From: a virus
Taxonomy: Duplodnaviria > Heunggongvirae > Uroviricota > Caudoviricetes
Virus record (IMG/VR): IMGVR_UViG_2513237219_000003
Strand: one strand, 5' to 3'
DNA length: 20,401 bases
The translations under genes were made by a program, and so were the position numbers. The notes beneath the pieces are model-generated. The model was not told the origin of the DNA and did not search any database. It saw only the letters and a list, made by a program, of their open reading frames with translations. Positions 1 through 20,401 of the stretch are shown here, piece by piece. Positions within the stretch are counted from its first letter, which is position 1; each line of letters opens with the position of its first letter.

Positions 1-1284
1 TTACTTCTTCGCCTCTGCAACCACTTTACTACCCACGCCGCGGTTATTGTATTCCCACATGCGGTTGTAGTTAGTGTCATTCAGATTGCGCTGTATTTCG
101 TCGTTATCATCTACGCTGCCGGTATTACCCGCAAACGGACGATTAGAGATCACCGCATCGGCCCACGGTTTAGCCGTGTTAAAACCTTCGTTGATGGCGC
201 TATCACGGATCACCACCTGACCGTTGGTATTGGCATCAACATCCAGCGAGCGGCCCAGTTGCGCCACACCATCACCGAAAGCATTGAAACGGCTGTTTAC
301 GGCGAGGAAACCGTAGTAAATGTTGGACAGCGTAGCCGGTGCAAACACATACGCTTCTTGCTGAGTACGTGAGTTCACCACGCGGAATTCGGTGTTATCG
401 AACACCACTGCGCCGCGACCAGAAACGATATCCACATCCCCTTCAATGTAGCTGTTGGTCACCAGCGTACGCGGCTGACGATTTGTTTCCAGACGGTTCT
501 GCACACCGCTGTTGGTGACAAAGAAGGTGTTCTGACGACCGAGAATGTTAACGTTGTTAATCTGTACCTGGTCACCATCAGTACGCAGTGCCACCGCCGG
601 ATGGTTACCTGCATCTACGCTATCGCCCAGCGTGTTTTCGATGGTCAGATTTTGCAGTTGCAGGCCATTGTTTTGTGACCAGAAGACCGCAGAGCAGAGA
701 ACACCGATACTGTCGCTGCGTTTGCTCTGGCAGCTATCGTACATATACCACGCTGGTTTACCTGGCATATATTTGCCGCGCGGGTTGACGTCGTGACGCC
801 AGTCGGCAGGGCTCATGCCACCATCAAGGGAAAGCCCAATCTTCACATCAATCGGTTTTTCACCTGTACCGTACAGAGTAATTCCACCCGGAGCGGCAGG
901 GACATATACCGTTCCCTGATACTCACCAGGCATCACGGCAATATACTGGCGCTTGTTGGTACGCTTGATAATTGCCGCATCTACCGCCGCCTGAATCGTG
1001 GTATGCGTTACACCTTGAGTGCCCGCCGGGCCGACAACAAAGTCAGGTTGCGCAGGCAGGGTAATCGGGGAAGGATTCCACGCTGCAGCACCTGGTGTCA
1101 GGGATGCAAAATAGTGTTGAGCATCGAAATTCTGCGCTTCTTTTGCCGACAGAATCGGGCGAGAAGAGGTACCAGGCGCGGTTTGATCAGAAGGACGTTG
1201 ATCGGGCGGGGTTGAGCTACAGGCGGTCAGCGTCACGCCAAAAGCCAATGCCAGCGCCAGACGGGAAACTGAAAATGTGTTCAC
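1..1284 (-). CDS. ybhC: YbhC, pectinesterase-family outer-membrane lipoprotein (acyl-CoA thioesterase); complete 427-aa gene flanking attB-lambda
   Basis: Full-length ORF whose translation matches E. coli YbhC as recalled; N-terminal lipoprotein signal with LTAC lipobox; ybhC is the known gal-side neighbour of the lambda attachment site. Confidence 0.85.
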   Translation of the reverse strand: MNTFSVSRLALALAFGVTLTACSSTPPDQRPSDQTAPGTSSRPILSAKEAQNFDAQHYFASLTPGAAAWNPSPITLPAQPDFVVGPAGTQGVTHTTIQAAVDAAIIKRTNKRQYIAVMPGEYQGTVYVPAAPGGITLYGTGEKPIDVKIGLSLDGGMSPADWRHDVNPRGKYMPGKPAWYMYDSCQSKRSDSIGVLCSAVFWSQNNGLQLQNLTIENTLGDSVDAGNHPAVALRTDGDQVQINNVNILGRQNTFFVTNSGVQNRLETNRQPRTLVTNSYIEGDVDIVSGRGAVVFDNTEFRVVNSRTQQEAYVFAPATLSNIYYGFLAVNSRFNAFGDGVAQLGRSLDVDANTNGQVVIRDSAINEGFNTAKPWADAVISNRPFAGNTGSVDDNDEIQRNLNDTNYNRMWEYNNRGVGSKVVAEAKK

Positions 1285-1330
1285 AGGTTGCTCCGGGCTA
1301 TGAAATAGAAAAATGAATCCGTTGAAGCCT

Positions 1331-1420
1331 GCTTTTTTATACTAAGTTGGCATTATAAAAAAGCATTGCTTATCAATTTGTTGCAACGAACAGGTCACTA
1401 TCAGTCAAAATAAAATCATT
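1331..1420. other. Prophage attL: 15-bp lambda att core (1331..1345) followed by the P' arm with Int arm-type sites and IHF site
   Basis: Exact core GCTTTTTTATACTAA; downstream GTTGGCATTATAAAAAAGCATTGCTTATCAATTTGTTGCAACGAACAGGTCACTATCAGTCAAAATAAAATCATTATTTG matches the lambda P' arm as recalled; host sequence to the left, int to the right. Confidence 0.85.
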
Positions 1421-2489
1421 ATTTGATTTCAATTTTGTCCCACTCCCTGCCTCTGTCATCACGATACTGTGATGCCATGGTGTCCGACTTATGCCCGAGA
1501 AGATGTTGAGCAAATTTATCGCTTATCTGCTTCTCATAGAGTCTTGCAGACAAACTGCGCAACTCGTGAAAGGTTGGCGGATCCCCTTCGAAGGAGAGAC
1601 CTGATGCTTTTCGTGCGCGCATAAAATACCTTGATACTGTGCCGGATGAAAGCGGTTCACGACGAGTAGATGCAATTATGGTTTCTCCGCCAAGAATCTT
1701 TTTGCATTTATCAAGTGTTTCCTTCATTGATATCCCGAGAGCATCAACATGCAATGTTGTTGGGATGGCAATTTTTACGCCTGTTTTGCTTTGCTCGACA
1801 TAAAGATATCCATCTACGATATCAGACCACTTCATTTCGCATAAATCACCAACTCGCTGCCCGGTAACAACAGCCAGTTCCATTGCAAGTCTAAGCCAAC
1901 ATGGTGATGATTCTGCTGCTTGATAAATTTTCAGGTATTCGTCAGCCGTAAGTCTTGATCTCCTTACCTCTGATTTTGCAGCGCGAGTGGCTGCGACCGG
2001 GTTTGTTGTTATATGGCCTTCAGCCATAGCCTCTCGGAATGCATCGCTCAGTGTTGATCTGATTAACTTGGCTGATGCCGCCTTTCCCTCGTCTATGTAT
2101 CCATTGAGCATTGCCGCAATTTCTTTTGTGGTGATGTCTTCAAGTGGAGCATCAGGCAGACCCCTCCTTATTGCTTTAATTTTGCTCATGTAATTTATGA
2201 GTGTCTTCTGCTTGATTCCTCTGCTGGCCAGGATTTTTTCGTAGCGATCAAGCCATGAATGTAACGTAACGGAATTATCACTGTTGATTCTCGCTGTCAG
2301 AGGCTTGTGTTTGTGTCCTGAAAATAACTCAATGTTGGCCTGTATAGCTTCAGTGATTGCGATTCGCCTGTCTCGGCCTAATCCAAACTCTTTACCCGTC
2401 CTTGGGTCCCTGTAGCAGTAATATCCATTGTTTCTTATATAAAGGTTAGGGGGTAAATCCCGGCGCTCATGACTTCGCCTTCTTCCCAT
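1419..2489 (-). CDS. int: Lambda-type integrase (tyrosine recombinase), 356 aa
   Basis: Translation matches lambda Int along its full length and has the same size; sits next to the P' arm and overlaps xis as in lambda. Confidence 0.95.
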   Translation of the reverse strand: MGRRRSHERRDLPPNLYIRNNGYYCYRDPRTGKEFGLGRDRRIAITEAIQANIELFSGHKHKPLTARINSDNSVTLHSWLDRYEKILASRGIKQKTLINYMSKIKAIRRGLPDAPLEDITTKEIAAMLNGYIDEGKAASAKLIRSTLSDAFREAMAEGHITTNPVAATRAAKSEVRRSRLTADEYLKIYQAAESSPCWLRLAMELAVVTGQRVGDLCEMKWSDIVDGYLYVEQSKTGVKIAIPTTLHVDALGISMKETLDKCKKILGGETIIASTRREPLSSGTVSRYFMRARKASGLSFEGDPPTFHELRSLSARLYEKQISDKFAQHLLGHKSDTMASQYRDDRGREWDKIEIK

Positions 2490-2685
2490 TTCTGATCCTC
2501 TTCAAAAGGCTACCTGTTACTGGTCGATTTAAGTCAACCTTTACCGCTGATTCGTGGAACAGATATTCTCTTCCATCCTTAACCGGAGGAGGGAATATCC
2601 TGCATTCGCGCACCCATCGACGAACTGTTTCAAGGCTTCTTGGGCGTCGCTGGCGAGCGTTCCACTCCTGAAGTGTCAAGTACAT
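2467..2685 (-). CDS. xis: Lambda-type excisionase, 72 aa
   Basis: Translation MYLTLQEWNARQRRPRSLETVRRW... matches lambda Xis; 3' end overlaps the int start. Confidence 0.95.
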   Translation of the reverse strand: MYLTLQEWNARQRRPRSLETVRRWVRECRIFPPPVKDGREYLFHESAVKVDLNRPVTGSLLKRIRNGKKAKS

Positions 2686-2712
2686 CGCAAAGTCTCCGCA
2701 ATTACACGCAAG

Positions 2713-2732
2713 AAAAAACCGCCATCAGGCGG
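2713..2732 (-). terminator. Intrinsic-terminator-like hairpin between orf55 and xis (minus-strand sense)
   Basis: GC-rich 5-bp stem CCGCC/GGCGG with 4-nt loop, followed on the minus strand by a six-U tract; the loop contains the orf55 stop codon. Confidence 0.45.
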
Positions 2733-2892
2733 CTTGGTGTTCTTTCAGTTCTTCAATTCGAATATTGGTTATGTCTGCATGTGCTATCTGCGCCCATATC
2801 ATCCAGTGGTCATAGCAGTCATTGATGTTCTCTGCTTCGATAACTCTGTTGAATGGTTCTCCATTCCATTCACCTGTGACTCGGAAGTGCAT
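2725..2892 (-). CDS. Small hypothetical protein (55 aa) in the position of the lambda ORF between xis and ea8.5
   Basis: ATG with GGAG Shine-Dalgarno 8 nt upstream; translation MHFRVTGEWNGEPFNRVIEAENINDCYDHWMIWAQIAHADITNIRIEELKEHQAA; not in the ORF track because it is under 60 aa. Identity with the lambda ORF is from memory. Confidence 0.5.
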   Translation of the reverse strand: MHFRVTGEWNGEPFNRVIEAENINDCYDHWMIWAQIAHADITNIRIEELKEHQAA

Positions 2893-2930: not shown

Positions 2931-3031
2931 CAGATATAATTTCCACCAAAGGCAGTAGTTGCTGATGCTAAGAATTGGTGATGCTGCCAACTTACTGATT
3001 TAGTGTATGATGGTGTTTTTGAGGTGCTCCA

Positions 3032-3307
3032 GTGGCTTCTGTTTCTATCAGCTGTCCCTCCTGTTCAGCTACTGACGGGGTGGTGCGTAACGGCAAAAGC
3101 ACTGCCGGACATCAGCGCTATCTCTGCTCTCACTGCCGTAAAACATGGCAACTGCAGTTCACTTACACCGCTTCTCAACCCGGTACGCACCAGAAAATCA
3201 TTGATATGGCCATGAATGGCGTTGGATGCCGGGCAACCGCCCGCATTATGGGCGTTGGCCTCAACACGATTTTCCGCCATTTAAAAAACTCAGGCCGCAG
3301 TCGGTAA
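3032..3307 (+). CDS. insA: IS1 InsA (copy A), 91 aa
   Basis: Translation matches IS1 InsA; the A6C slippery motif TTAAAAAAC for the InsAB' -1 frameshift lies at about 3281..3289. Confidence 0.9.
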
Positions 3308-3729
3308 CCTCGCGCATACAGCCGGGCAGTGACGTCATCGTCTGCGCGGAAATGGACGAACAGTGGGGATACGTCGGGGCTAAATCGCGCCAGCGCTGGC
3401 TGTTTTACGCGTATGACAGGCTCCGGAAGACGGTTGTTGCGCACGTATTCGGTGAACGCACTATGGCGACGCTGGGGCGTCTTATGAGCCTGCTGTCACC
3501 CTTTGACGTGGTGATATGGATGACGGATGGCTGGCCGCTGTATGAATCCCGCCTGAAGGGAAAGCTGCACGTAATCAGCAAGCGATATACGCAGCGAATT
3601 GAGCGGCATAACCTGAATCTGAGGCAGCACCTGGCACGGCTGGGACGGAAGTCGCTGTCGTTCTCAAAATCGGTGGAGCTGCATGACAAAGTCATCGGGC
3701 ATTATCTGAACATAAAACACTATCAATAA
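3226..3729 (+). CDS. insB: IS1 InsB frame (copy A); expressed as an InsAB' fusion by -1 frameshifting
   Basis: Translation matches the IS1 InsB frame; overlaps insA in the -1 frame. Confidence 0.9.
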
Positions 3730-3751
3730 GTTGGGAGTCATTACCTAAGAA

Positions 3752-4180
3752 TTATTCAATATCTATTCCTGTAATATCTTTTATCTTTTTCCTTGCAAAG
3801 CCTTTTGCTAGTGATTTTGAAACACTTATTAGTGTACTAATTCCCTCATCCTTAAAGTTTGTTTTTATAGTTTGCCAGACCTCCTTTTGACGCAAGTCAG
3901 CAATAAAATCATGCCCTCTTGCTGTCAACCTCAGTGGTACTTCGATCCAACTATATCCAACACCTTCCCCTAACTCGTTGGACATTATATGACCGAACCC
4001 AGGTTTTCCATCAACCCTGACTATTAATTCGTAGTCGCATAATAATCGCATATGGAAAATAAAATTTTGGTCATATCTATTAAAGCCATTATCCTCTAGT
4101 TCACTAAGCATCGTGTCAGGGCCATGAGTTTTTTCGAATGCGATAAGTAGATCTTTTAGATATTGCTGGTCTAATTTCAT
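3752..4180 (-). CDS. Hypothetical 142-aa protein with a winged-helix-like N-terminus (DUF2513-like by motif recall); accessory gene in the ea8.5/ea22 position
   Basis: Intact ORF with GGAGG Shine-Dalgarno 6 nt upstream; motif LTARGHDFIADLRQKEVWQTIK resembles the conserved GH-F...R...VW core recalled for DUF2513 proteins; AT-rich codon usage; no lambda counterpart recognised. Confidence 0.6.
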   Translation of the reverse strand: MKLDQQYLKDLLIAFEKTHGPDTMLSELEDNGFNRYDQNFIFHMRLLCDYELIVRVDGKPGFGHIMSNELGEGVGYSWIEVPLRLTARGHDFIADLRQKEVWQTIKTNFKDEGISTLISVSKSLAKGFARKKIKDITGIDIE

Positions 4181-4840: not shown

Positions 4841-5298
4841 TTATCTAAAAGTCTTTCCACTTTTAACGTCTAGGTATATTCTGTTCGACAACGTCATTCC
4901 TCCGCAATATGTGAAATAGATGTTTTTCCCCTTATTGCTTGATGCCATCCACCCTCCGATTTCCTTAAAGTCGCTTTCCGTGCAGACCCCTTCGTTTATT
5001 AACTTCCTAGCTGCCGAAGAAAACTCTTTTTTGTATATACGGTAGTCATCAGATCCTTTGATTAAAGTATCATCTCCGCTCGCATTTTCAGCAGGATCTG
5101 ATGGCCTTTCACTGCTAAGATCACTAAGTTTAACCCATTCTGAAAACTTGCCATTGACGATTCCGTTTTTTCTTGTGCAGGATTTATTACCTTCTTTAAT
5201 ATATTCGCTTTCCCCTCCCACACATGAGGCTGAATATGGCTCAGTTATACGAACCCATTCACCTTTTTTTTCTAGAAAATCTACGCCTTCCCTGAAAA
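4841..5298 (-). pseudogene. C-terminal fragment of an unknown protein; N-terminus removed at the IS1-B boundary
   Basis: Reading frame stays open from 5221 up to the IS1-B end at 5298 (…FREGVDFLEKKGEWVRITEPYSASCVGGESEY…) with no start codon before the IS; lysine-rich and AT-rich; no recognised family. Confidence 0.5.
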
Positions 5299-5313
5299 GG
5301 TAATGACTCTAAC

Positions 5314-5817
5314 TTATTGATAGTGTTTTATGTTCAGATAATGCCCGATGACTTTGTCATGCAGCTCCACCGATTTTGAGAACGACAGCGACTTCCGTCC
5401 CAGCCGTGCCAGGTGCTGCCTCAGATTCAGGTTATGCCGCTCAATTCGCTGCGTATATCGCTTGCTGATTACGTGCAGCTTTCCCTTCAGGCGGGATTCA
5501 TACAGCGGCCAGCCATCCGTCATCCATATCACCACGTCAAAGGGTGACAGCAGGCTCATAAGACGCCCCAGCGTCGCCATAGTGCGTTCACCGAATACGT
5601 GCGCAACAACCGTCTTCCGGAGCCTGTCATACGCGTAAAACAGCCAGCGCTGGCGCGATTTAGCCCCGACATAGCCCCACTGTTCGTCCATTTCCGCGCA
5701 GACGATGACGTCACTGCCCGGCTGTATGCGCGAGGTTACCGACTGCGGCCTGAGTTTTTTAAGTGACGTAAAATCGTGTTGAGGCCAACGCCCATAATGC
5801 GGGCTGTTGCCCGGCAT
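5314..5817 (-). CDS. insB: IS1 InsB frame (copy B)
   Basis: Translation matches IS1 InsB. Confidence 0.9.
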
Positions 5818-6011
5818 CCAACGCCATTCATGGCCATATCAATGATTTTCTGGTGCGTACCGGGTTGAGAAGCGGTGTAAGTGAACTGCAGTTGCCATGT
5901 TTTACGGCAGTGAGAGCAGAGATAGCGCTGATGTCCGGCGGTGCTTTTGCCGTTACGCACCACCCCGTCAGTAGCTGAACAGGAGGGACAGCTGATAGAA
6001 ACAGAAGCCAC
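5736..6011 (-). CDS. insA: IS1 InsA (copy B)
   Basis: Translation matches IS1 InsA. Confidence 0.9.
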
Positions 6012-6066
6012 TGGAGCACCTCAAAAACACCATCATACACTAAATCAGTAAGTTGGCAGCATCACC

Positions 6067-6283
6067 CCATCAGCGTTACCGTTTCGCGGTGCTTCTTCAG
6101 TACGCTACGGCAAATGTCATCGACGTTTTTATCCGGAAACTGCTGTCTGGCTTTTTTGATTTCAGAATTAGCCTGACGGGCAATGCTGCGAAGGGCGTTT
6201 TCCTGCTGAGGTGTCACTGAACAAGCCCCATGTCGGCAAGCATAAGCACACAGAATATGAAGCCCGCTGCCAGAAAAATGCAT
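6067..6283 (-). pseudogene. Lambda orf61-region ORF, 3'-truncated by IS1 copy B
   Basis: Frame ...VTPQQENALRSIARQANSEIKKARQQFPDKNVDDICRSVLKKHRETVTLMG runs straight into the IS1 end, with its stop supplied by IS1 sequence; lies in the orf61 position upstream of orf63. True start uncertain. Confidence 0.4.
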
Positions 6284-6293
6284 TCAGTGGTTG

Positions 6294-6485
6294 TCATACC
6301 TGGTCTCTCTCATCTGCTTCTGCTTTCGCCACCATCATTTCCAGTTTTTGTGAAAGGGATGTGGCTAACGTATGAAATTCTTCGTCTGTTTCTACTGGTA
6401 TTGGCACAAACCTGATTCCAATTTGAGCAAGGCTATGTGCCATCTCGATACTCGTTCTTAACTCAACAGGAGATGCTTTGTGCAT
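6294..6485 (-). CDS. Lambda orf63-like protein, 63 aa
   Basis: Translation and length match lambda orf63 as recalled; 28-nt overlap with orf60a as in lambda. Confidence 0.75.
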   Translation of the reverse strand: MHKASPVELRTSIEMAHSLAQIGIRFVPIPVETDEEFHTLATSLSQKLEMMVAKAEADERDQV

Positions 6486-6640
6486 ACAGCCCCTCGTTTA
6501 TTATTTATCTCCTCAGCCAGCCGCTGTGCTTTCAGTGGATTTCGGATAACAGAAAGGCCGGGAAATACCCAGCCTCGCTTTGTAACGGAGTAGACGAAAG
6601 TGATTGCGCCTACCCGGATATTATCGTGAGGATGCGTCAT
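6458..6640 (-). CDS. Lambda orf60a-like protein, 60 aa
   Basis: Translation [60 protein letters not shown] matches lambda orf60a; start overlaps the exo stop (ATGA). Confidence 0.75.
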
Positions 6641-7317
6641 CGCCATTGCTCCCCAAATACAAAACCAATTTCAGCCAGTGCCTCGTCCATTTTTTCGATG
6701 AACACCGGCACCATCTCGTCAAAACTCGCCATGTACTTTTCATCCCGCTCAACCACGACATAATGCAGTCCTTCACGCTTCATACGCGGGTCATAGTTGG
6801 CAAAGTACCAGGCATCTTTTCGTGTCACCCACATGCTGTACTGCACCTGGGCCATGTAAGCCGACTTTATGGCCTCGAAACCACCGAGCCGGAACTTCAT
6901 GAAATCCCGGGAGGTAAACGGGCATTTCAGCTCAAGGCCATTGCCGTCACTGCATAAACCATCGGGAGAGCAGGCGGTGCGCATACTTTCGTCGCGATAG
7001 ATGATCGGGGATTCAGTAACATTCACGCCGGAAGTGAATTCAAACAGGGTTCTGGCGTCGTTCTCGTACTGTTTTCCCCATGCCAGCGCCTTAGCATTAA
7101 CTTCCGGAGCCACACCGGTGCAAACCTCAGCCAGCAGGGTGTGGAAGTAGGACATTTTCATGTCAGGCCACTTCTTTCCTGAGCGGGGCTTGGCTATCAC
7201 GTTGTGAACTTCTGAAGCGGTGATGACGCCGAGCCGTAATTTGTGCCATGCATCATCCCCCTGTTCGACAGCTCTCACGTCGATCCCGGTACGCTGCAGG
7301 ATAATGTCCGGTGTCAT
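6637..7317 (-). CDS. exo: Lambda exonuclease (Red-alpha), 226 aa
   Basis: Full-length translation matches lambda Exo; start overlaps the bet 3' end as in lambda. Confidence 0.95.
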
Positions 7318-7760
7318 GCTGCCACCTTCTGCTCAGTGGCTTTCTGTTTCAGGAATCCAAGAGCTTTCACTGCTTCGGCCTGTGTCAGTTCTGACGATGC
7401 GCGAATGTCGCGGCGAAATATCTGGGAACAGAGCGGCAATAAGTCGTCATCCCATGTTTTGTCCAGGGCAATCAGCAGAGTGTTAATCTCCTGCATGGTT
7501 TCATCGTTAACCGGAGTAATGTCGCGTTCCGGCTGACGTTCTGCGGTGTATGCGGTATTTTCGACAATGCGCTCGGCTTCATCCTTGTCATAGATACCAG
7601 CAAATCCGAAGGCCAGACGGGCACACTGAATCATGGCTTTATGCCGTAACATCCGTTTGGGATGCGACTGCCACGGCCCCGTAATTTCTCTGCCTTCGCG
7701 GGTTTTGAATGGTTCGCGGCGGCATTCATCCATCCACTCGGTAACGCAGATCGGATGATT
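7314..7760 (-). pseudogene. bet: bet (Red-beta) 3' fragment; 5' part deleted, junction at about 7760/7761
   Basis: Translation matches the C-terminal part of lambda Bet (…NHPICVTEWMDECRREPFKTREGREI… to the end); upstream frame hits a stop and unrelated sequence beyond 7760. Confidence 0.9.
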
Positions 7761-7795
7761 ACCGGTTCGCTACCAGGGAAGAACGGGAAGGAAAG

Positions 7796-7882
7796 GTGAG
7801 CACGAATCTGATTTTCAAGGAGTGTCGCCAGAGTGCCGCGATGAAGCGGGTGTTGGCATTTTATCGCGGCAATTTTCAATAG
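7796..7882 (+). CDS. Hypothetical 28-aa ORF just past the bet deletion junction
   Basis: GTG start preceded by GGAAGGAAAG; translation VSTNLIFKECRQSAAMKRVLAFYRGNFQ; may correspond to a small DLP12-type ORF upstream of ybcN, but that could not be confirmed. Confidence 0.2.
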   Translation: MSTNLIFKECRQSAAMKRVLAFYRGNFQ

Positions 7883-8367: not shown

Positions 8368-8928
8368 ATGAAGAAGATAATATTATTAGCCATGATTATT
8401 GGTTCTTTAACAGGTTGCGCTAGTGTGCCACCATTGAATTTTTCAACACCTAACGTGGGAGTTAGCCAGAAAAAAATAGATGCTGAAATTAAGTCATTAA
8501 CGGTATCACTTGCTCGTCCAGATGAGCAGAAAGGGGATATCACTGCTGGTATGGAGGCTATAACTCCAATTTGGCGTGAATCTTTGCAGGAAGCACTCGA
8601 CCGAATGACTATTTTTCGTGATAGTTCACCAAATACGGTTAGCTTAAATGTTAAAGTGTTGGCTCTTGACGTTCCTGCTTTTGGTGTTTCAATGACAACT
8701 AAAGCAATTGCAAGGTATGAAATAATCAACCGTGCGAATGGTGATATTATATATACGCAGGATATTGAGTCTACCGGTACTGTTCCAGCCAGTTACGCAT
8801 TCTACGGTATTGTTCGAGCACGCGAATCTGTTAATCGCGCGGTGCAAAACAACATAACGCAGTTCTTGCAAGCATTAGAAAGTGTTGATCTTTCTCGTCC
8901 AATGTTTCCTGTTAGGGTAGCTAAATGA
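8368..8928 (+). CDS. Hypothetical outer-membrane lipoprotein, 186 aa (first gene of a two-lipoprotein operon)
   Basis: ATG with AAGG Shine-Dalgarno 7 nt upstream; signal peptide MKKIILLAMIIGSLTGC with lipobox LTGC and Ala at +2; AT-rich; stop overlaps the start of the next gene (ATGA). Confidence 0.75.
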   Translation: MKKIILLAMIIGSLTGCASVPPLNFSTPNVGVSQKKIDAEIKSLTVSLARPDEQKGDITAGMEAITPIWRESLQEALDRMTIFRDSSPNTVSLNVKVLALDVPAFGVSMTTKAIARYEIINRANGDIIYTQDIESTGTVPASYAFYGIVRARESVNRAVQNNITQFLQALESVDLSRPMFPVRVAK

Positions 8929-9377
8929 AGCGATTATTCGTAATTGCTCCACTCTTAGTGTTGGTTGGATGCGCACAAAATATATCGCCAAATAGTTATT
9001 CTGTTGGCTCTGTGGGCATGGTTAATCGAACTATCGCTGGTACAGTTATTAGTGCTAGGGGGGTTGATATCAGTGGGACTTCCGCGTTAGGCGGGACTGC
9101 TGGGGCTGCCGTGGGGGCAACCGCTGGTTCTGCGCTTGGTGGGGGAGTTCGTTCTAATATCGTTGGTGCCGTTGGTGGTGCAGTCATTGGTGGTATTGCC
9201 GGGGCAGCAATCGAATCTTCAGCAACAAAACAAACAGGCATGGAATATGTTGTCGAAACTGAGAATGGGAATTTAATGACCATTGTTCAAGGCAAAGATC
9301 CGTTATTTACTCAAGGAAGTAAGGTCCTTGTTTTATACGGAAACCCTTCTCGCATAATAACAGACCCGCGTCACTAA
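8925..9377 (+). CDS. SlyB/Pcp-like glycine-zipper outer-membrane lipoprotein, 150 aa
   Basis: Lipobox LVGC; central Gly/Ala zipper (GTSALGGTAGAAVGATAGSALGGGVRSNIVGAVGGAVIGGIAGAAI) and C-terminal region laid out like E. coli SlyB as recalled; translationally coupled to the upstream lipoprotein gene. Confidence 0.8.
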   Translation: MKRLFVIAPLLVLVGCAQNISPNSYSVGSVGMVNRTIAGTVISARGVDISGTSALGGTAGAAVGATAGSALGGGVRSNIVGAVGGAVIGGIAGAAIESSATKQTGMEYVVETENGNLMTIVQGKDPLFTQGSKVLVLYGNPSRIITDPRH

Positions 9378-9567
9378 CATACCTTTTGATTTTGTAAAAT
9401 CAATTCGTAATAATAAAGTCATCGGAGCTTGAACAACTCCGGTGACTTCTGCGCTAAACGGGGACGTTTATGCGCACATACAATCCAAACTCTCTTCTCC
9501 CTTCACAGATGCAGAAATGCACCTGCGATTTTTTGCATCCAGCGTCTGACCTCTGCGGAGGTGAAGC

Positions 9568-10023: not shown

Positions 10024-10193
10024 TGGCTACACCGCTTATTCGTGTCATGAACGGACACATCTACAGAGTACCAAATCGTCGTAAGCGTAAACCGGAGCTG
10101 AAGCCTTCCGAAATACCAACACTGCTCGGATATACCGCCAGCCTGGTTGATAAAAAATGGTTGCGACTGGCAGCAAGGAGGAGTCATGGCTGA
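10023..10193 (+). CDS. ninE: NinE-family protein, 56 aa
   Basis: ATG overlapping the ybcN stop (TAATG); translation [56 protein letters not shown]; not in the ORF track (under 60 aa). Confidence 0.8.
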   Translation: MATPLIRVMNGHIYRVPNRRKRKPELKPSEIPTLLGYTASLVDKKWLRLAARRSHG

Positions 10194-10835: not shown

Positions 10836-10972
10836 TGTTTGAGTTTAATATGGCAGAACTTCTTCGCCACCGCTGGATGCGCCTGCGCTTATATCGTTTC
10901 CCCAGTTCTGTTTTGACCGATTACCGAATACTGAGGAATTACGCCAAAACCCTGACAGGAGCAGGAGTATGA
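10832..10972 (+). CDS. ylcG: YlcG-like small protein, 46 aa
   Basis: ATG overlapping the rusA stop; translation [46 protein letters not shown]; position downstream of rusA as in DLP12. Confidence 0.7.
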
Positions 10973-11057
10973 AGTCAGAGATAACAATCAACTAATACTG
11001 TTTTATTGATTTTTGCTTGTAATTGGCGTTCTGGTCTGATTTTTGTGGAGTAAGTTG

Positions 11058-11441
11058 ATGCGTGATATTCAGATGGTTCTTGAGCGTTGGGGAGCGTGGG
11101 CGGCTAATAATCATGAAGATGTGACCTGGTCGTCCATTGCCGCCGGTTTTAAGGGATTAATTACTTCAAAAGTAAAATCTCGCCCGCAATGTTGTGACGA
11201 TGACGCGATGATCATTTGCGGGTGCATGGCCCGTCTGAAAAAGAACAACAGCGATTTGCACGATTTATTAGTAGATTATTATGTAGTCGGTATGACATTC
11301 ATGTCACTGGCAGGTAAGCATTGCTGCTCTGATGGTTATATCGGGAAAAGGTTACAGAAGGCTGAGGGTATAATTGAAGGGATGTTAATGGCATTAGATA
11401 TCCGGTTAGAGATGGATATCGTTGTTAATAACTCTAATTAA
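11058..11441 (+). CDS. quuD: Q-family late-gene antiterminator (phage-21 / DLP12 type), 127 aa
   Basis: Translation [24 protein letters not shown]… matches DLP12 QuuD as recalled; ATG with GTGGAG Shine-Dalgarno; Cys-rich zinc-binding region. Confidence 0.9.
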
Positions 11442-11629: not shown

Positions 11630-12712
11630 TTAGAACTGGTAAACCATACCTACAGCAACGATATCATCGGTAGCAACGCCAGATGCTTTCGTGAAATCGC
11701 TCTTATCAATCAGGTTGATTTTGTAATCAACAAAAGTGGACATATTTTTGTTGAAGTAATAGGTTGCACCTACATCAATATATTCAACCAGGTCCTGATC
11801 ACCCCACGCACCCAAGTCTTTTCCTTTAGATTGCAGGTAAGCAACGGACGGACGCAGACCGAAGTCGAACTGATATTGTGCAACTACTTCGAAGTTTTGT
11901 GCTTTGTTGGCAATATGGTTATTACCAAAAACAGTCATGTTCTGGGTTTCAGAATAGGTGGTAGCCAGATAGATGTTGTTCGCATCATATTTCAGACCAG
12001 CTGCCCATACTTCAGCATTTTGACCAGATGCATTCAGGCTGTTGTTACCGTAGATAACCTGATTATTAGTGCGGTCAGATTTAGCATAGGTTGCACCTAC
12101 ACCGAATCCTTCATACTCATAAGTAGTGGAGAAACCGAAACCATCACCATTAGCTTCAGTTACGTCAGTGCGGTCATTTTTACCCTGATACTGAGCAGCA
12201 AAGTTCAGACCATCAACCAGACCAAAGAAGTCATTGTTACGATAAGTTGCAACACCTGTGGTGCGACCAGTCATGAATACATCTGTTTGGGTCCAGGTAT
12301 CGCCACCGAATTCTGGCAGAACGTCGGTCCATGCACCAATATCGTATGCTACACCGTAGTTACGGCCATAATCGATGGAGCCGTAGTCACCGAATTTCAG
12401 GCCAGCGAAGGCAAGACGGGTTTTATCTTTGGAGGAACCTTGAGATTCAGCGCGGTTGCCTTTGAATTCATATTCCCACTGACCGAAACCAGTCAGTTGA
12501 TCGTTGATTTGGGTTTCACCTTTGAAGCCAAGACGGGCATAAGTAGTATCACCATCATCTGCATCATTAGAGGAGAAGTAGTGCTTAGCATTAACTTTCC
12601 CGTACAGATCCAGCTTGTTACTGTCTTTATTATAAATTTCAGCTGCCTGAGCAGACATCGCCATCAGTACTGATGCAGCTACAGCAGAAATTGCCACTGT
12701 TAATTTTTTCAT
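11630..12712 (-). CDS. nmpC: NmpC/OmpD-family general porin, apparently intact (360 aa with signal peptide)
   Basis: Translation matches the NmpC/OmpC porin family with signal peptide [23 protein letters not shown] and C-terminal …VAVGMVYQF; the track ORF starts 20 codons upstream, but the MKKL start fits the signal peptide. Confidence 0.9.
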
Positions 12713-13299: not shown

Positions 13300-13515
13300 A
13301 TGAAATCCATGGATAAGTTAACAACGGGTGTCGCCTATGGCACCTCAGCAGGTAGTGCCGGTTACTGGTTTTTACAGCTGCTCGATAAAGTCACGCCCTC
13401 ACAGTGGGCAGCAATAGGTGTGCTGGGTAGCCTGGTATTTGGCCTGCTGACGTACCTGACAAACCTTTATTTCAAGATTAAAGAAGATAAGCGCAAGGCT
13501 GCGAGAGGTGAATAA
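13300..13515 (+). CDS. essD: S21-type class II holin (pinholin) with dual-start motif, 71 aa
   Basis: Translation [71 protein letters not shown] matches phage-21 S / DLP12 EssD; Met1 and Met4 fit antiholin/holin dual starts; strong Shine-Dalgarno. Confidence 0.9.
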
Positions 13516-14012
13516 TGCCTCCATCATTACGAAAAGCCGTTGCTGCTGCTATTGGTGGCGGAGCAATTGCTATAGCATCAGTGTTAATTACTGGCCCAAG
13601 TGGTAACGATGGTCTGGAAGGTGTCAGCTACGTACCATACAAAGATATCGTTGGCGTATGGACTGTATGTCACGGACACACCGGAAAAGACATCATGCTC
13701 GGTAAAACGTATACCAAAGCAGAATGCAAAGCACTCTTGAATAAAGACCTTGCCACTGTCGCCAGACAAATTAACCCGTACATCAAAGTCGATATACCGG
13801 AAACAACGCGCGGCGCTCTTTACTCATTCGTTTACAACGTGGGTGCTGGCAATTTCAGAACATCGACGCTTCTTCGCAAAATAAACCAGGGCGATATCAA
13901 AGGCGCATGTGATCAGCTACGTCGCTGGACATATGCTGGCGGTAAGCAATGGAAAGGTCTCATGACTCGTCGTGAGATTGAGCGTGAAATCTGTTTGTGG
14001 GGTCAGCAATGA
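13515..14012 (+). CDS. rrrD: SAR endolysin (lysozyme, R21 type), 165 aa
   Basis: Translation matches DLP12 RrrD; N-terminal Gly/Ala-rich signal-arrest-release segment; start overlaps the essD stop (TAATG). Confidence 0.95.
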
Positions 14013-14470
14013 ACAGAGTAACCGCGATTATCTCCGCTCTGGTTATCTGCATCATCGTCTACCTGTCATGGGCTGTTAATCATTACCGTGATAACGCCAT
14101 TACCTACAAAGCCCAGCGCGACAAAAATGCCAGAGAACTGAAGCTGGCGAACGCGGCAATTACTGACATGCAGATGCGTCAGCGTGATGTTGCTGCGCTC
14201 GATGCAAAATACACGAAGGAGTTAGCTGATGCGAAAGCTGAAAATGATGCTCTGCGTGATGATGTTGCCGCTGGTCGTCGTCGGTTGCACATCAAAGCAG
14301 TCTGTCAGTCAGTGCGTGAAGCCACCACCGCCTCCGGCGTGGATAATGCAGCCTCCCCCCGACTGGCAGACACCGCTGAACGGGATTATTTCACCCTCAG
14401 AGAGAGGCTGATCACTATGCAAAAACAACTGGAAGGAACCCAGAAGTATATTAATGAGCAGTGCAGATAG
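14009..14470 (+). CDS. rzpD: Rz-type inner-membrane spanin, 153 aa
   Basis: Translation from [29 protein letters not shown]… matches DLP12 RzpD; N-terminal transmembrane helix; ATGA overlap with rrrD. Confidence 0.9.
14229..14411 (+). CDS. rzoD: Rz1-type outer-membrane lipoprotein spanin, nested in the +1 frame of rzpD, 60 aa
   Basis: Translation [24 protein letters not shown]…PPPPP… with lipobox VVGC and proline-rich region; wholly embedded in rzpD. Confidence 0.85.
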
Positions 14471-14501: not shown

Positions 14502-14795
14502 TTATTGTGAGCAATACACACGCGCTTCCAGCGGAGTATAAATGCCTAAAGTAATAAAACCGAGCAATCCATTTACGAATGTTTGCTGGGTTTCTGTTTT
14601 AACAACATTTTCTGCGCCGCCACAAATTTTGGCTGCATCGACAGTTTTCTTCTGCCCAATTCCAGAAACGAAGAAATGATGGGTGATGGTTTCCTTTGGT
14701 GCTACTGCTGCCGGTTTGTTTTGAACAGTAAACGTCTGTTGAGCACATCCTGTAATAAGCAGGGCCAGCGCAGTAGCGAGTAGCATTTTTTTCAT
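14502..14795 (-). CDS. borD: Bor-family lipoprotein (serum-resistance-associated), 97 aa
   Basis: Translation matches lambda Bor / DLP12 BorD; lipobox ITGC. Confidence 0.9.
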   Translation of the reverse strand: MKKMLLATALALLITGCAQQTFTVQNKPAAVAPKETITHHFFVSGIGQKKTVDAAKICGGAENVVKTETQQTFVNGLLGFITLGIYTPLEARVYCSQ

Positions 14796-15085: not shown

Positions 15086-15538
15086 TTAGCGTGGAAAGAT
15101 TTGTGTAGTGTTCTGAATGCTCTCAGTAAATAGTAATGAATTATCAAAGGTATAGTAATATCTTTTATGTTCATGGATATTTGTAACCCATCGGAAAACT
15201 CCTGCTTTAGCAAGATTTTCCCTGTATTGCTGAAATGTGATTTCTCTTGATTTCAACCTATCATAGGACGTTTCTATAAGATGCGTGTTTCTTGAGAATT
15301 TAACATTTACAACCTTTTTAAGTCCTTTTATTAACACGGTGTTATCGTTTTCTAACACGATGTGAATATTATCTGTGGCTAGATAGTAAATATAATGTGA
15401 GACGTTGTGACGTTTTAGTTCAGAATAAAACAATTCACAGTTTAAATCTTTTCGCACTTGATCGAATATTTCTTTAAAAATGGCAACCTGAGCCATTGGT
15501 AAAACCTTCCATGTGATACGAGGGCGCGTAGTTTGCAT
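15086..15538 (-). CDS. ybcV: YbcV-family (DUF1398) protein; start uncertain
   Basis: Translation …[38 protein letters not shown]… matches DLP12 YbcV as recalled; the track ORF runs to 15619; candidate starts at 15538 or 15496. Confidence 0.8.
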
Positions 15539-15781
15539 TATCGTTTTTATCGTTTCAATCTGGTCTGACCTCTTTGTGTTTTGTTGATGATTTATGTCAA
15601 ATATTAGGAATGTTTTCACTTAATAGTATTGGTTGCGTAACAAAGTGCGGTCCTGCTGGCATTCTGGAGGGAAATACAACCGACAGATGTATGTAAGGCC
15701 AACGTGCTCAAATCTTCATACAGAAAGATTTGAAGTAATATTTTAACCGCTAGATGAAGAGCAAGCGCATGGAGCGACAAA

Positions 15782-15988
15782 ATGAATAAAGAACAATCTG
15801 CTGATGATCCCTCCGTGGATCTGATTCGTGTAAAAAATATGCTTAATAGCACCATTTCTATGAGTTACCCTGATGTTGTAATTGCATGTATAGAACATAA
15901 GGTGTCTCTGGAAGCATTCAGAGCAATTGAGGCAGCGTTGGTGAAGCACGATAATAATATGAAGGATTATTCCCTGGTGGTTGACTGA
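15782..15988 (+). CDS. ybcW: YbcW-like small protein, 68 aa
   Basis: ORF of the expected length and position (divergent from ybcV); translation [68 protein letters not shown]. Confidence 0.7.
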
Positions 15989-16152
15989 TCACCATAACTG
16001 CTAATCATTCAAACTATTTAGCCTGTGACAGAGCCAACACGCAGTCTGTCACTGTCAGGAAAGTGGTAAAACTGCAACTCAATTACTGCAATGCCCTCGT
16101 AATTAAGTGAATTTACAATATCGTCCTGTTCGGAGGGAAGAACGCGGGATGT

Positions 16153-16347
16153 TCATTCTTCATCACTTTTAATTGATGTATATGCTCTCTTTTCTGACGT
16201 TAGTCTCCGACGGCAGGCTTCAATGACCCAGGCTGAGAAATTCCCGGACCCTTTTTGCTCAAGAGCGATGTTAATTTGTTCAATCATTTGGTTAGGAAAG
16301 CGGATGTTGCGGGTTGTTGTTCTGCGGGTTCTGTTCTTCGTTGACAT
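16153..16347 (-). CDS. ylcI: YlcI-like (DUF3950) small protein, 64 aa
   Basis: Translation MSTKNRTRRTTTRNIRFPNQMIEQINIALEQKGSGNFSAWVIEACRRRLTSEKRAYTSIKSDEE; basic N-terminus and ribbon-helix-helix-like core. Confidence 0.65.
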   Translation of the reverse strand: MSTKNRTRRTTTRNIRFPNQMIEQINIALEQKGSGNFSAWVIEACRRRLTSEKRAYTSIKSDEE

Positions 16348-16546
16348 GAGGTTGCCCCGTATTCAGTGTCGCTGATTTGTATTGTCTGAAGTTGTTTTTA
16401 CGTTAAGTTGATGCAGATCAATTAATACGATACCTGCGTCATAATTGATTATTTGACGTGGTTTGATGGCGTAGATGCACGTTGTGACATGTAGATGATA
16501 ATTATTATCATTTTGCGGGTCCTTTCCGGCGATCCGACAGGTTACG

Positions 16547-16558
16547 GGGCGGCGACCT
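16547..16558. other. Lambda cosN cohesive-end sequence (GGGCGGCGACCT), with cosB/Nu1-binding region following to about 16735
   Basis: Exact 12-nt lambda cohesive end preceded by the lambda right-end sequence …CCGACAGGTTACG and followed by lambda left-end sequence CGCGGGTTTTCGCTATTTATGAAAATTTTCCGG…. Confidence 0.85.
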
Positions 16559-16735
16559 CGCGGGTTTTCGCTATTTATGAAAATTTTCCGGTTTAAGGCG
16601 TTTCCGTTCTTCTTCGTCATAACTTAATGTTTTTATTTAAAATACCCTCTGAAAAGAAAGGAAGCGACAGGTGCTGAAAGCGAGCTTTTTGGCCTCTGTC
16701 GTTTCCTTTCTCTGTTTTTGTCCGTGGAATGAACA

Positions 16736-16795
16736 ATGGAAGTCAACAAAAAGCAGCTGGCTGACATTTTCGGTGCGAGTATAAGTTCTGATTAG
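16736..16795 (+). pseudogene. nu1: nu1 (terminase small subunit) remnant: first 16 codons only, then deletion junction at about 16782/16783
   Basis: MEVNKKQLADIFGASI matches the lambda Nu1 N-terminus; the frame then diverges and stops after 3 more codons; downstream sequence looks like the last codons of lom plus its terminator. Confidence 0.8.
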
Positions 16796-16844: not shown

Positions 16845-16855
16845 GTGGGGTGAAT

Positions 16856-19819
16856 ATGGCAGTAAAGATTTCAGGTGTACTGAAAGACAGCACAGGAAAA
16901 CCGGTACAGAACTGCACAATCCAGCTGAAAGCAAAACGTAACAGCACCGCGGTGGTGGTGAACACGCTGGCCTCAGAAAATCCGGATGAAGCCGGGCGTT
17001 ACAGCATGGACGTTGAGTACGGTCAGTACAGCGTTATTCTGTTGGTGGAAGGATTCCCGCCGTCACATGCCGGGACCATCACCGTGTATGAAGATTCCCG
17101 ACCCGGTACGCTGAATGATTTTCTCGGTGCCATGACGGAGGATGATGCCCGTCCGGAGGCTCTGCGCCGTTTTGAACTGATGGTGGAAGAGGTGGCGCGT
17201 AACGCGTCCGCAGTGGCACAGAACACGGCAGCCGCGAAGAAGTCAGCCAGTGATGCCAGCACATCTGCCAGTGAGGCGGCAACTCATACAACCGATGCTG
17301 CAGGCTCAGCTCGTGCCGCCAGCACGTCAGCCGGACAGGCTGCATCATCTGCTCAGTCAGCATCTTCCAGCGCAGGAACGGCATCAACAAAGGCCAGTGA
17401 AGCATCGAAAAGTGCTGCTGCTGCAGAGTCCTCAAAAAGCGCGGCAGCTACCAGTGCCGCTGCGGCGAAAACGTCAGAAACGAATGCGGCAGCGTCACAA
17501 CAATCAGCAGCCACTTCTGCATCCGCCGCGACCACGAAGGCGTCAGAAGCTGCCACCTCAGCCCGGGATGCGGCGGCCTCAAAAGAGGCGGCAAAATCAT
17601 CAGAAACGAGCGCAGCCTCGAGCGCCAGTAGTGCAGCCTCCTCGGCAACAGCGGCAGGAAATTCCGCGAAGGCGGCAAAAACGTCCGAGACGAACGCTAA
17701 GTCTTCTGAGACGGCAGCAGCACAGAGTGCCTCCGCAGCAGCAGACTCAAAAACAGCGGCTGCCTCATCTGCCAGCGCCGCGTCAACAAATGCCGGGCAG
17801 GCCTCAGCCAGTGCCACCGCTGCCGGAAAGTCGGCAGAAAGCGCCGCATCATCCGCTTCAACAGCCACAACGAAGGCTGGCGAAGCCACTGAACAGGCCA
17901 CGGCAGCAGCGAGGTCAGCTTCCGCAGCGAAGACATCCGAAACGAACGCGAAAGCGTCGGAAACCAGCGCAGAATCCTCAAAAACGGCTGCCGCATCGTC
18001 AGCCAGTTCGGCGGCGTCATCGGCATCATCGGCGTCTGCTTCAAAAGATGAGGCGACCAGACAGGCGTCAGCAGCGAAGGGCAGCGCCACGACGGCATCC
18101 ACGAAGGCGACAGAGGCAGCTGGCAGTGCGACGGCGGCAGCTCAGAGCAAAAGTACGGCGGAATCCGCGGCAACGCGCGCCGAGACAGCAGCAAAACGGG
18201 CAGAGGATATTGCATCCGCCGTGGCGCTTGAGGATGCGAGCACGACGAAAAAGGGGATAGTACAGCTCAGCAGTGCGACTAACAGCACTTCCGAGTCACT
18301 GGCGGCAACGCCAAAAGCCGTTAAGGCCGCGTATGAGCTGGCTAACGGGAAATACACCGCACAGGATGCAACGACAGCACAGAAAGGGATAGTTCAGCTT
18401 AGCAACGCGACCAACAGCACATCTGAAATGCTGGCGGCAACGCCAAAGTCGGTAAAGGCAGCCTATGACCTTGCTAACGGGAAATATACTGCTCAGGACG
18501 CTACGACAGCACAAAAAGGAATTGTCCAGCTCAGTAGTGCAACCAACAGCGCATCTGAAACGCTTGCCGCGACACCGAAAGCAGTGAAAGCAGCTAATGA
18601 TAATGCGAATGGTCGGGTACCTTCTGCCCGTAAGGTGAATGGTAAGGCGCTTTCAGCGGATATAACACTGACGCCGAAAGATATTGGTACGCTTAACTCA
18701 ACAACAATGTCATTCAGCGGTGGTGCTGGTTGGTTCAAATTAGCAACGGTAACCATGCCACAGGCGAGTTCTGTTGTTTCAATTACGTTGATTGGTGGCG
18801 CGGGATTTAACGTGGGGTCACCTCAACAGGCAGGTATATCTGAACTTGTTTTGCGTGCAGGTAATGGTAATCCGAAGGGGATTACTGGTGCTTTATGGCA
18901 GCGCACATCGACAGGGTTTACAAATTTTGCCTGGGTCAATACATCTGGTGATACTTACGATATTTACGTTGCAATCGGAAATTATGCGACTGGTGTAAAT
19001 ATTCAATGGGATTATACCAGTAATGCCAGCGTGACGATTCATACGTCACCAGCATATTCTGCTAATAAGCCGGAAGGGTTAACGGACGGTACAGTTTATT
19101 CACTCTATACGCCATCAGAGCAGTTTTATCCGCCTGGCGCACCAATCCCGTGGCCATCAGATACCGTTCCGTCTGGCTATGCCCTGATGCAGGGGCAGAC
19201 TTTTGACAAATCTGCATACCCGAAACTTGCAGCCGCTTATCCGTCAGCCGTGATCCCTGATATGCGTGGCTGGACGATTAAGGGCAAACCCGCCAGTGGT
19301 CGTGCCGTATTGTCTCAGGAACAGGACGGCATTAAATCGCACACCCACAGCGCCAGCGCATCCAGTACGGATTTGGGGACGAAAAACACATCGTCGTTTG
19401 ATTACGGAACCAAATCCACGAATAACACCGGGGCGCATACCCATAGTATTAGCGGGACTGCAAATAGTACCGGTGCGCACCAACACAAGAGTTCCGGTGC
19501 ATTTGGTGGCACGAACACGAGCATTTTCCCTAATGGTTATACCGCGATTTCAAATCTAAGCGCGGGGATTATGAGCACAACAAGCGGTAGTGGCCAGACT
19601 CGTAATGCAGGGAAGACATCATCAGATGGTGCTCATACCCACTCGCTGTCCGGCACTGCTGCAAGCGCAGGCGCACATGCACATACTGTCGGTATTGGTG
19701 CTCATACGCACTCCGTTGCGATTGGCTCACACGGACACACCATCACCGTTAACGCTGCTGGTAACGCGGAAAACACCGTCAAAAACATCGCATTTAACTA
19801 TATTGTGAGGCTTGCATAA
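16856..19819 (+). CDS. stf: Side tail fiber protein Stf, full-length single ORF (about 987 aa)
   Basis: N-terminus [26 protein letters not shown]… and C-terminus …[31 protein letters not shown] match lambda Stf; long Ala/Ser/Thr-rich shaft; His-rich HxH repeats near the tip; ATG at 16856 with GTGGGGTGA upstream. Confidence 0.95.
18242..18615 (+). repeat. Three tandem copies of a 129-132 bp unit inside stf, encoding 43-44 aa tail-fibre repeats
   Basis: Units begin at 18242, 18371 and 18503; encoded peptides TT(A)(Q)KGIVQLS(S/N)ATNS(T/A)SE(S/M/T)LAATPK(A/S)VKAAY(E/D)[11 protein letters not shown]; the third copy diverges at its end. Confidence 0.85.
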
Positions 19820-20401
19820 TGGCATTCAGAATGAGTGAACAACCACGGACCATAAAAATTTATAATCTGCTGGCCGGAACTAATGAATTTATTGGTGAAG
19901 GTGATGCATATATTCCGCCTCATACAGGTCTGCCAGCAAACAGTACCGATATTGCACCGCCAGATATTCCGGCTGGCTTCGTGGCTGTTTTCAACAGTGA
20001 TGAGTCATCGTGGCATCTTGTTGAAGACCATCGGGGTAAAACAGTTTATGACGTGGCATCAGGGGACGCGTTATTTATTTCTGAACTCGGCTCATTACCG
20101 GAAAATGTTACCTGGTTATCCCCGGAAGGGGAGTTTCAGAAGTGGAACGGCACAGCCTGGGTGAAGGATACGGAAGCAGAAAAACTGTTCCGGATCCGGG
20201 AGGTGGAAGAAACAAAAAACAAGCCTGATGCAGGTAGCCAGTGAGCATATAGCGCCGCTTCAGGATGCTGTGGATCTGGAAATCGCAACGGAGGAAGAAA
20301 CCTTGTTGCTGGAAGCCTGGAAAAAGTATCGGGTATTGCTGAACCGTGTTGATACGTCAACTGCACAGGATATTGAATGGCCAGTAGCACCTATAGGGTA
20401 A
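19819..20401 (+). pseudogene. tfa: Tail fiber assembly gene tfa with a frameshift at the A-run near 20214..20223
   Basis: Frame 1 (19819..20244) gives [24 protein letters not shown]… matching the lambda Tfa N-terminus, then stops; the next frame continues [59 protein letters not shown] to the stop at 20399..20401, matching the Tfa C-terminus. Start overlaps the stf stop (TAATG). Confidence 0.85.

Follow-up and report, generated by a model that had tools for sequence, protein, structure and literature searches.

Introduction

Defective lambda-type prophages are on record between ybhC and ybhB of Escherichia coli, namely in E. coli B and Crooks (PMC3032704) and as Sp3 in O157 (PMC8190617). Here we analyzed a window of 20,401 nt, the whole of virus record IMGVR_UViG_2513237219_000003, which very probably represents a new member of this well-known kind: a cryptic (defective) lambda-type prophage at the same site, attλ. 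The elements of REL606 (lambda*B of E. coli B) and of strain 38 resemble it in the site, in lambda-type int-xis and in the independent loss of the immunity-replication genes and most structural genes. However, only about 12 kb remain in REL606, and its late genes are unrelated. In strain 38, bet′ (561 nt) is joined to ′P (231 nt) and ren is complete (L007 19715-20791), and the Q and cargo regions (lipocalin, YbgA, IS2 and diguanylate cyclase) are of other types. The bet/ren junction of the window either is nested within the strain 38 junction or arose by a separate deletion of these modules. Sp3/CP-933K of O157 likewise has the same insertion site and lambda-type int-xis, but spans about 38 kb.

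The deletional decay and domestication of 'grounded' prophages have been reviewed with emphasis on damage to att or int as the route of stranding (PMC6379469). The element in the window differs in that it was stranded by loss of its regulatory and replication regions, with att and int intact. Another described relative is DLP12 of E. coli K-12, whose lysis module is reported to be domesticated and to affect vesiculation and cell-wall maintenance (PMC7918800).

We compared the window by alignment with lambda (NC_001416), K-12 DLP12 and phage ev099 (NC_049953, Radostvirus), the best complete relative found, and took censuses of junctions in 5,426 complete E. coli genomes. The window is ~100% identical to the chromosome of E. 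coli NCTC9040 (NZ_LR134247.1) in the ybhC-to-bioA region. The prophage is 23,426 bp long in NCTC9040, and the window contains the left ~19 kb of an element of 22-23 kb overall.

Two large deletions removed the immunity, replication and morphogenesis genes

The first deletion junction joins bet (lambda 32473) to ren (lambda 40449) at positions 7758..7762 over a 5-bp microhomology, ATTAC. The loss amounts to about 7,975 bp of lambda or 7,186 bp of ev099 (about 7.2-8.0 kb) and took gam, kil, cIII, N, pL, the immunity region, pR, cro, cII, O with the origin, and P. Alignment identifies only the C-terminal 148 codons of bet (7314..7762, minus strand), and annotation together with the lambda alignment identifies a C-terminal fragment of ren (7758..7879, plus strand). 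The second junction joins nu1 (lambda 237) to lom (lambda 19574) at 16780..16782 over a 3-bp microhomology, TAT, with a loss of about 19.3-19.4 kb that covers terminase, head and tail genes, J and most of lom. In the remaining nu1 stub (16736..16795, plus strand), 15 and two-thirds codons of nu1 run into the end of lom and then a stop codon. The lambda stretches absent from the window are 32474-40448 and 238-19573.

A first-pass annotation of the window, made from the sequence alone, had placed these junctions near 7760 in bet and at codon 17 of nu1. The mapping to 7758-7762 agrees with the former, and for the latter the break lies in codon 16 while the first altered codon is 17. Its emphasis that both junctions fall precisely inside genes is true as to position but uninformative in a genome of which more than 90% is coding. 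Neither large junction falls in a repeat. The bet/ren junction was found in 19 of the 5,426 complete genomes and the nu1/lom junction in two, one of which is NCTC9040; the other is presumably 1332KP, which shows the same nu1-stub/stf arrangement.

When the missing modules of lambda and ev099 were searched against the window by tblastx, no match was obtained at E ≤ 1e-4. All bases of the window were assigned to some element or gene, and every open reading frame (ORF) region was accounted for. Both results agree with the earlier listing of gam, kil, cIII, N, cI, cro, cII, O, P and the head and tail genes between nu1 and lom as absent. The negative tblastx search also rejects the possibility that this is an intact phage with the missing genes elsewhere in the window. 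The element has thus lost the essential lytic and immunity genes that distinguish an active phage from a cryptic prophage, and the rest of the prophage, beyond the window, adds only an AraC-family regulator and IS3 fragments (IS, insertion sequence). We concur with the first-pass annotation that it is unable to replicate, set up immunity or build virions, yet keeps int, xis, attL, Q, the lysis cassette and envelope genes. Subtracting two IS1 copies from 23,426 bp and adding back 7.2-8.0 kb and ~19.4 kb gives about 48-49 kb, the size of the lambda genome. This sum matches a lambda-type genome, so the two large deletions, together with small events, account for everything that is missing.

The prophage is integrated at attλ with both ends preserved

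The left end of the window is host DNA, in which ybhC (1..1284, minus strand; RefSeq annotation of NCTC9040), on the gal side of attλ, is 99.96% identical to its K-12 counterpart. The attL core GCTTTTTTATACTAA follows at 1331..1345 (plus strand) as an exact 15-bp match, for which about 0.05 matches would be expected by chance; alignment with attB and attP places the host B arm to its left and the phage P′ arm to its right. Homology to lambda begins precisely at this core, at lambda 27724. Beside attL lie a lambda-type integrase and excisionase, both full length: int (1419..2489, minus strand) encodes 356 aa that are 98.6% identical to lambda Int over 356/356 residues, and xis (2467..2685, minus strand) encodes 72 aa that are 98.6% identical to lambda Xis over 72/72.

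The attR that the first-pass annotation proposed to look for downstream of tfa does exist in NCTC9040, ~3.25 kb past the window end. Its core, ACTTTTTTATACTAA, matches at 14/15 positions rather than being identical, and the host DNA behind it resumes exactly as in K-12 attB. The prophage is thereby placed between ybhC and ybhB and flanked by the 15-bp core. The P arm at attR is 98% identical to that of ev099 and only 85% identical to that of lambda. The single core difference is a G-to-A change in the C core site, from CAGCTTTTT to CAACTTTTT, the latter of which is the consensus core-type Int site (CAACTTNNT consensus). Judged by this consensus, attR looks proficient. attL, too, looks proficient.

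In NCTC9040, the interval from tfa to attR contains only the AraC-family regulator and the IS3 fragments (L001 35001-36531, beyond the window). The counterpart in ev099 (L014 25210-26726) is 98.3% identical. As ev099 has them between tfa and attP, they are ancestral phage-borne cargo, analogous to appY of DLP12, and not a later insertion.

The mosaic of lambda-type and DLP12-type blocks was inherited

Alignment resolved the window into blocks. Positions 1331-2940 (int, xis and p35) match lambda 27724-29333 at 97.9%, and positions 6066-7762 (orf61′, orf63, orf60a, exo and the bet remnant) match lambda 30776-32473 at 97.6%. Between them, 3746-5298 has no lambda match and contains a gene for a DUF2513 protein, pseudogenes and a 5′-truncated phrog_8310 gene. 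The C-terminal part of ren (7758-7857) matches lambda 40449-40548 and is followed by 7858-9383, which matches neither lambda nor DLP12 and carries a two-lipoprotein cassette. The stretch 9384-14008 (ylcH, ybcN, ninE, ybcO, rusA, ylcG, quuD, porin, essD and rrrD) matches DLP12 only, at 91-98%. Next, 14009-16546 (Rz/Rz1, bor, ybcV, ybcW and ylcI) matches lambda 45966-48502 at 99.3% in a region common to lambda and DLP12, and 16547-16782 (cos and 47 nt of nu1) matches lambda 1-237. From 16780 onward, the match resumes at lambda 19574 with the last 12 nt of lom, then stf and tfa. Except for the two deletions and the IS1 copies, the gene order is collinear with lambda and ev099, which is the lambdoid order.

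The block alignments uphold the first-pass description of a mosaic of a lambda-type arm, a DLP12-type block and cos/nu1′/stf-tfa, but not its contiguity of int-xis with orf63, as two IS1 copies and a 1.55-kb non-lambda segment separate them. What had been called a DLP12/phage-21-type block holds from ylcH to rrrD, which match DLP12 only; from Rz to ylcI, the sequence is as close to lambda as to DLP12, or closer. That description had omitted the IS1 pair, the ren fragment, the lipoprotein cassette and a frameshift in tfa.

The element shares with lambda the att core, Int (98.6%), Xis, the exo/bet DNA (97.6%), the Rz-bor-cos region (99.3%) and the gene order. It differs in its nin-Q-S-R region, which belongs to another type, in stf, for which identity is no higher than 78-87%, and in the early-left cargo, where the DUF2513 and phrog_8310 genes replace lambda ea8.5 and ea22. 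Phage ev099 is alike in att/int (98.9%), in the rusA-Q-porin-S-R block (rusA to Rz, 95.9%) and in the b region with tfa, the AraC regulator, the IS3 fragments and attP (98.3%). Unlike the window element, ev099 possesses the immunity, replication, head and tail genes of a complete phage; where the window has the lipoprotein cassette and ybcN-ybcO, its nin region carries ninB and a methyltransferase. Nothing relevant on ev099 turned up in a search of the literature. Because this complete phage has the same int/att, Q-porin-lysis block and b region, the mosaic was inherited. Isolated phages other than ev099 also pair a lambda-type int/red arm with a Q-porin-lysis block of the DLP12 type. By these sequence comparisons, the lambda/DLP12 mosaic is ancestral, reflecting normal lambdoid mosaicism and not decay.

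DLP12 itself is collinear with the window from ylcH to ylcI at 91-99% identity and has decayed in a similar manner, with an exo′/P′/ren remnant on the left, nohD-A′-tfa on the right, and Q, lysis genes and bor kept. It differs in its location at argU with the intD integrase, in the disruption of nmpC by IS5, and in the possession of emrE, ybcK-ybcM, appY, ompT and envY, which the window element is without. An identification of the element as DLP12 was rejected since it resides at ybhC-ybhB with lambda Int rather than at argU with intD, and only the late block is common to both.

Sister copies reveal the order of the deletions

We compared ten copies of the prophage that are at least 99.9% identical. 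Four different junctions were found in the morphogenesis region (nu1/A to lom/stf). In the window lineage, nt 47 of nu1 is joined to the end of lom. PEC1009 has nt 516 of nu1 joined to the last 438 nt of lom, and 23CRST021, BR1220 and SCPM-O-B-12142 have nt 360 of nu1 joined to stf. In A14, NCTC9104, NCTC9087 and CM2010-0578/1, complete nu1 and 1,049 nt of A are joined to the last 1,203 nt of stf. The A14-type junction keeps terminase sequence that the others lost and is without lom/stf sequence that the others keep, so at least two independent deletions must have occurred. The structural-gene deletions came after the common immunity-replication deletion, independently by lineage.

The early-left arm is similarly variable: it has undergone four different deletions and the insertion of IS1B and IS1A, and was separately entered by another IS1A in 1332KP and by IS3 and IS4 in BR1220. 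The 9.0-kb block from ′ren to cos shows a single structural alteration, an IS1 in ybcV of NCTC9104. With events counted by eye from pairwise alignments and a uniform target probability assumed, this block, 39% of the element, received one of ~14-17 events compared with 5.5-6.7 expected (P(≤1) = 0.002-0.009). The sparing of the block is suggestive, not conclusive. The att sites and recombinase genes are intact in most copies.

IS1 elements eroded the early-left region

Two inverted IS1 copies bracket 1.55 kb of non-lambda DNA in the early-left region. The IS1B-type copy (2977..3745, plus strand) entered by a simple insertion that duplicated 8-9 bp of its target, (C)TAAGAATT, and its empty site is visible in PEC1009. 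The IS1A-type copy (5299..6066, minus strand) has no mismatch to that of NCTC9040, in which it sits inside an orf61-like gene with its own 9-bp duplication, CCATCAGCG. In the window, IS1A is without the left target duplication and without the adjoining 1,097 bp (L001 17298-18394), the loss of which is flush with the left IS1 end. The lost segment held ead′, a TraR/DksA gene and part of the orf61-like gene.

The pair might be taken for a composite IS1 transposon, but this was rejected because the copies have separate target duplications (TAAGAATT for IS1B and, in NCTC9040, CCATCAGCG for IS1A) and the inner segment has kept its ancestral position, as a comparison with PEC1009, which is free of IS1, shows. 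Strain 1332KP has a different IS1A copy, flanked by the duplication ATCTACGCC, 11 bp from the 5298/5299 deletion endpoint of the window (L016 about 9786), which prompted us to consider IS1A-by-IS1A recombination as the origin of the 1,097-bp loss. This origin was rejected, as the insertion is 11 bp off and the IS1A of the window is identical to the NCTC9040 copy, unlike that of 1332KP. A transposase-mediated IS1-adjacent deletion into an AT-rich target hotspot fits better, and the 1332KP insertion suggests a local IS1 target hotspot in the phrog_8310 gene. In NCTC9104 (L008), a 667-bp deletion (L005 9951|10619) ends a few bases from the IS1A site of NCTC9040 (L005 10610-10618), yet no IS1 is present there. 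This endpoint may be the footprint of an earlier IS1 event or a coincidence.

Between the two IS1 copies, the DUF2513 gene (3752..4180, minus strand; phrog_585, a family without known function) is non-lambda early-left cargo, and its product gave no match to a known defence gene in PADLOC or NCBIfam. Pseudogenes occupy 4181-4840, and the phrog_8310 gene (4841..5298, minus strand), cut by the IS1-adjacent deletion, retains the C-terminal 126 of its 204 codons. To the left of IS1B lies a 55-aa homologue of lambda p35 (2725..2892, minus strand). To the right of IS1A are the orf61-like gene, annotated as ZapA-like and 3′-truncated by IS1A (6067..6283, minus strand), and full-length orf63, orf60a and exo (6294..7317, minus strand).

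The window differs from NCTC9040 by the 1,097-bp loss and by two single-base insertions, a G at 3735 and an A at 20222. The additional G gives GGG instead of GG in the terminal repeat of IS1B. Not one of the 5,426 complete E. coli genomes has any of these three features, and both insertions sit in homopolymer-like runs.

The late block, cos and the tail fibre genes are largely intact

The two-gene lipoprotein cassette (8368..9377, plus strand) in the nin region encodes proteins of 186 aa with lipobox LTGC and of 150 aa with lipobox LVGC and a glycine zipper, the latter match being below the cut-off of Pfam. It has a low G+C content of about 37-40%, its own promoter-like site at 8311-8338 and a terminator-like site at 9312-9330. 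About 280 complete E. coli genomes carry the cassette downstream of ren. The two proteins belong to PHROG families 12521 and 13877, both without known function, and searches of PADLOC and NCBIfam for known defence genes and of Pfam gave no assignment. The cassette could be an envelope-acting moron, for example in receptor masking or exclusion.

It is followed by ylcH, ybcN, ninE, ybcO, rusA, ylcG and quuD (9470..11441, plus strand), in which the Q antiterminator QuuD is identical to that of DLP12 at 127/127 residues. An NmpC/OmpD-type porin of 360 aa (11630..12712, minus strand) is intact, without the IS5 that interrupts nmpC in K-12, and scores 518 bits, above the cut-off, to the NCBIfam porin OmpC subfamily. 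The lysis cassette (13300..14470, plus strand) comprises the holin gene essD, the endolysin gene rrrD and the spanin genes rzpD and rzoD, all full length. The bor lipoprotein gene (14502..14795, minus strand) encodes a product identical to lambda Bor at 97/97 residues, and ybcV (DUF1398), ybcW and ylcI lie at 15086..16347. In line with the first-pass annotation that the retained genes are intact, Int, Xis, Exo, QuuD, EssD, RrrD, Rz/Rz1, Bor, YbcV, YbcW and YlcI are all full length. The remaining cargo is largely envelope-directed: the porin, Bor and the two predicted lipoproteins.

The lambda-type cos (16500..16735, plus strand) has the cosN nick between 16546 and 16547 and an intact 12-nt end, GGGCGGCGACCT. 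cosN is identical to that of lambda and cosB has two differences; cos looks functional. The side tail fibre gene stf (16856..19819, plus strand) is full length, encodes 987 aa and has internal 132-bp repeats at 18249-18594 (2.6 copies, 78% alike). Sister strains show a 270-bp in-frame length difference in stf (L005 23775-24044), which ends at L005 24045, the A′-to-′stf junction of the A14-type copies; the site may be prone to recombination. tfa (19819..20401, plus strand) is frameshifted by the extra A at 20222, in AAAAAACAAGCC, giving a product of 141 aa compared with 193 aa in NCTC9040, and it is intact in the sister strains. An Rfam scan of the window gave a sole match, IS009 (RF02111; 211 bits), at 20162-20361 in the 3′ half of tfa, and a tRNA scan of the window found nothing.

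Discussion

We consider it very probable that the window represents a lambda-type prophage at attλ that has become cryptic. Its ancestor would have been an ev099/lambda-like phage, about 48-49 kb long, that Int integrated between ybhC and ybhB. A single bet-to-ren deletion would then have removed pL, N, kil, the immunity region, pR, cro, cII, the origin, O and P, a loss that was survivable because the killing and replication functions went together with the repressor. The element would thereby have become transcriptionally orphaned and incapable of replication. Deletions of terminase, head and tail genes, different by lineage, would have followed, here from nu1 codon 16 to the last 12 nt of lom. 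Next, two IS1 insertions would have entered the early-left region, one of which would have given rise to the adjacent 1,097-bp deletion. The order of events is visible across the strains. Going by lambda biology, the remnant would not be inducible from within, in excision or late transcription, because int and xis have lost pL/N and the cII-dependent activation of pI, and Q has lost pR. Int/Xis or a Q of matching specificity from an incoming lambdoid phage, or homologous recombination with it, could still act on the remnant.

Several points weigh against this explanation or parts of it. Errors of assembly or sequencing could account for the three features specific to the window. Events were counted in ten loci without a phylogeny, and the counts, their independence and the assumption of uniform targets are approximate. 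Fewer repeats or IS targets, instead of selection, could be the reason why the late block was spared. Finally, non-inducibility and any benefit to the host are inferences rather than observations.

That the large deletions themselves are assembly artefacts, the source genome holding an intact prophage, has next to no probability in our judgment. The 1,097-bp loss beside a repeat and the two insertions in homopolymer-like runs, each absent from the complete genomes surveyed, would suit such an origin, but both large junctions lie outside repeats and recur identically in independently sequenced complete genomes, 19 for bet/ren and two for nu1/lom. Only slightly less improbable is a helper-dependent satellite, either a phage-inducible chromosomal island (PICI) or a cos-type island, that is excised and packaged by a lambda-type helper. 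The intact int, xis, attL and attR and the near identity of cosN/cosB to lambda are compatible with such a life cycle, as is the size, since a dimer of the 22-23 kb element (about 45-47 kb) would be within the packaging range of the lambda head. The PICI reading was nevertheless rejected because the element has neither a replication module (primase/rep or O/P/ori) nor an AlpA-type or helper-sensing regulator. No gene for capsid redirection or helper interference was identified among the ORFs, in which the phrog_8310 fragment and the 4181-4840 pseudogenes are without assigned function. In addition, two deletions aside, the whole content is collinear with that of a normal phage, and the sister copies vary by random-looking deletions, unlike the conserved architecture of satellites.

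Domestication is an addition to the cryptic prophage explanation and not an alternative to it. Host selection would keep the porin, Bor, the two lipoproteins and/or the Q-lysis cassette, with decay confined to useless flanks; we regard this as possible but doubtful. The single hit to the ren-to-cos block among ten near-identical copies, where 5.5-6.7 were expected, argues for it, and all genes of the block are full length, including the porin that IS5 disrupts in K-12. The promoter-like and terminator-like sites of the lipoprotein cassette and the modulation of vesiculation and cell-wall maintenance reported for the DLP12 lysis module (PMC7918800) point in the same direction. However, int, xis and the b region are spared too, and late transcription may be silent because Q has lost pR. 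Event counts that are approximate and not placed on a tree underlie the statistics, and the ratio of nonsynonymous to synonymous substitution rates (dN/dS) is uninformative because the copies are at least 99.9% identical. We tentatively propose that the 9-kb ren-to-cos block is under selection while the rest is dismantled by repeated independent deletions and IS1 activity, and that the remnant, with int, xis, attL, attR and a lambda-type cos retained, may be excised by, or recombine with, an incoming lambda/ev099-type phage. If this is true, it would be a mobile reservoir of late-gene and host-range modules. Persistence of the element may owe in part to a useful or harmless late/envelope block and in part to its role as a recombination reservoir for lambdoid phages.

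As a textbook cryptic prophage, the element has little importance beyond annotation. Rather than as an active phage, the region should be annotated as a cryptic lambda-type prophage at attλ, with the porin, Bor and the lipoproteins labeled prophage cargo. Its modest value lies in the uncharacterised lipoprotein cassette and in a resolved decay series in near-identical strains, in which a common loss of immunity and replication genes came first, structural genes were lost independently, IS1 eroded the element, and the Q-porin-lysis-envelope block was struck less than expected. This series is in keeping with what has been proposed in the literature on prophage domestication, for which it could provide a small but well-resolved test case.

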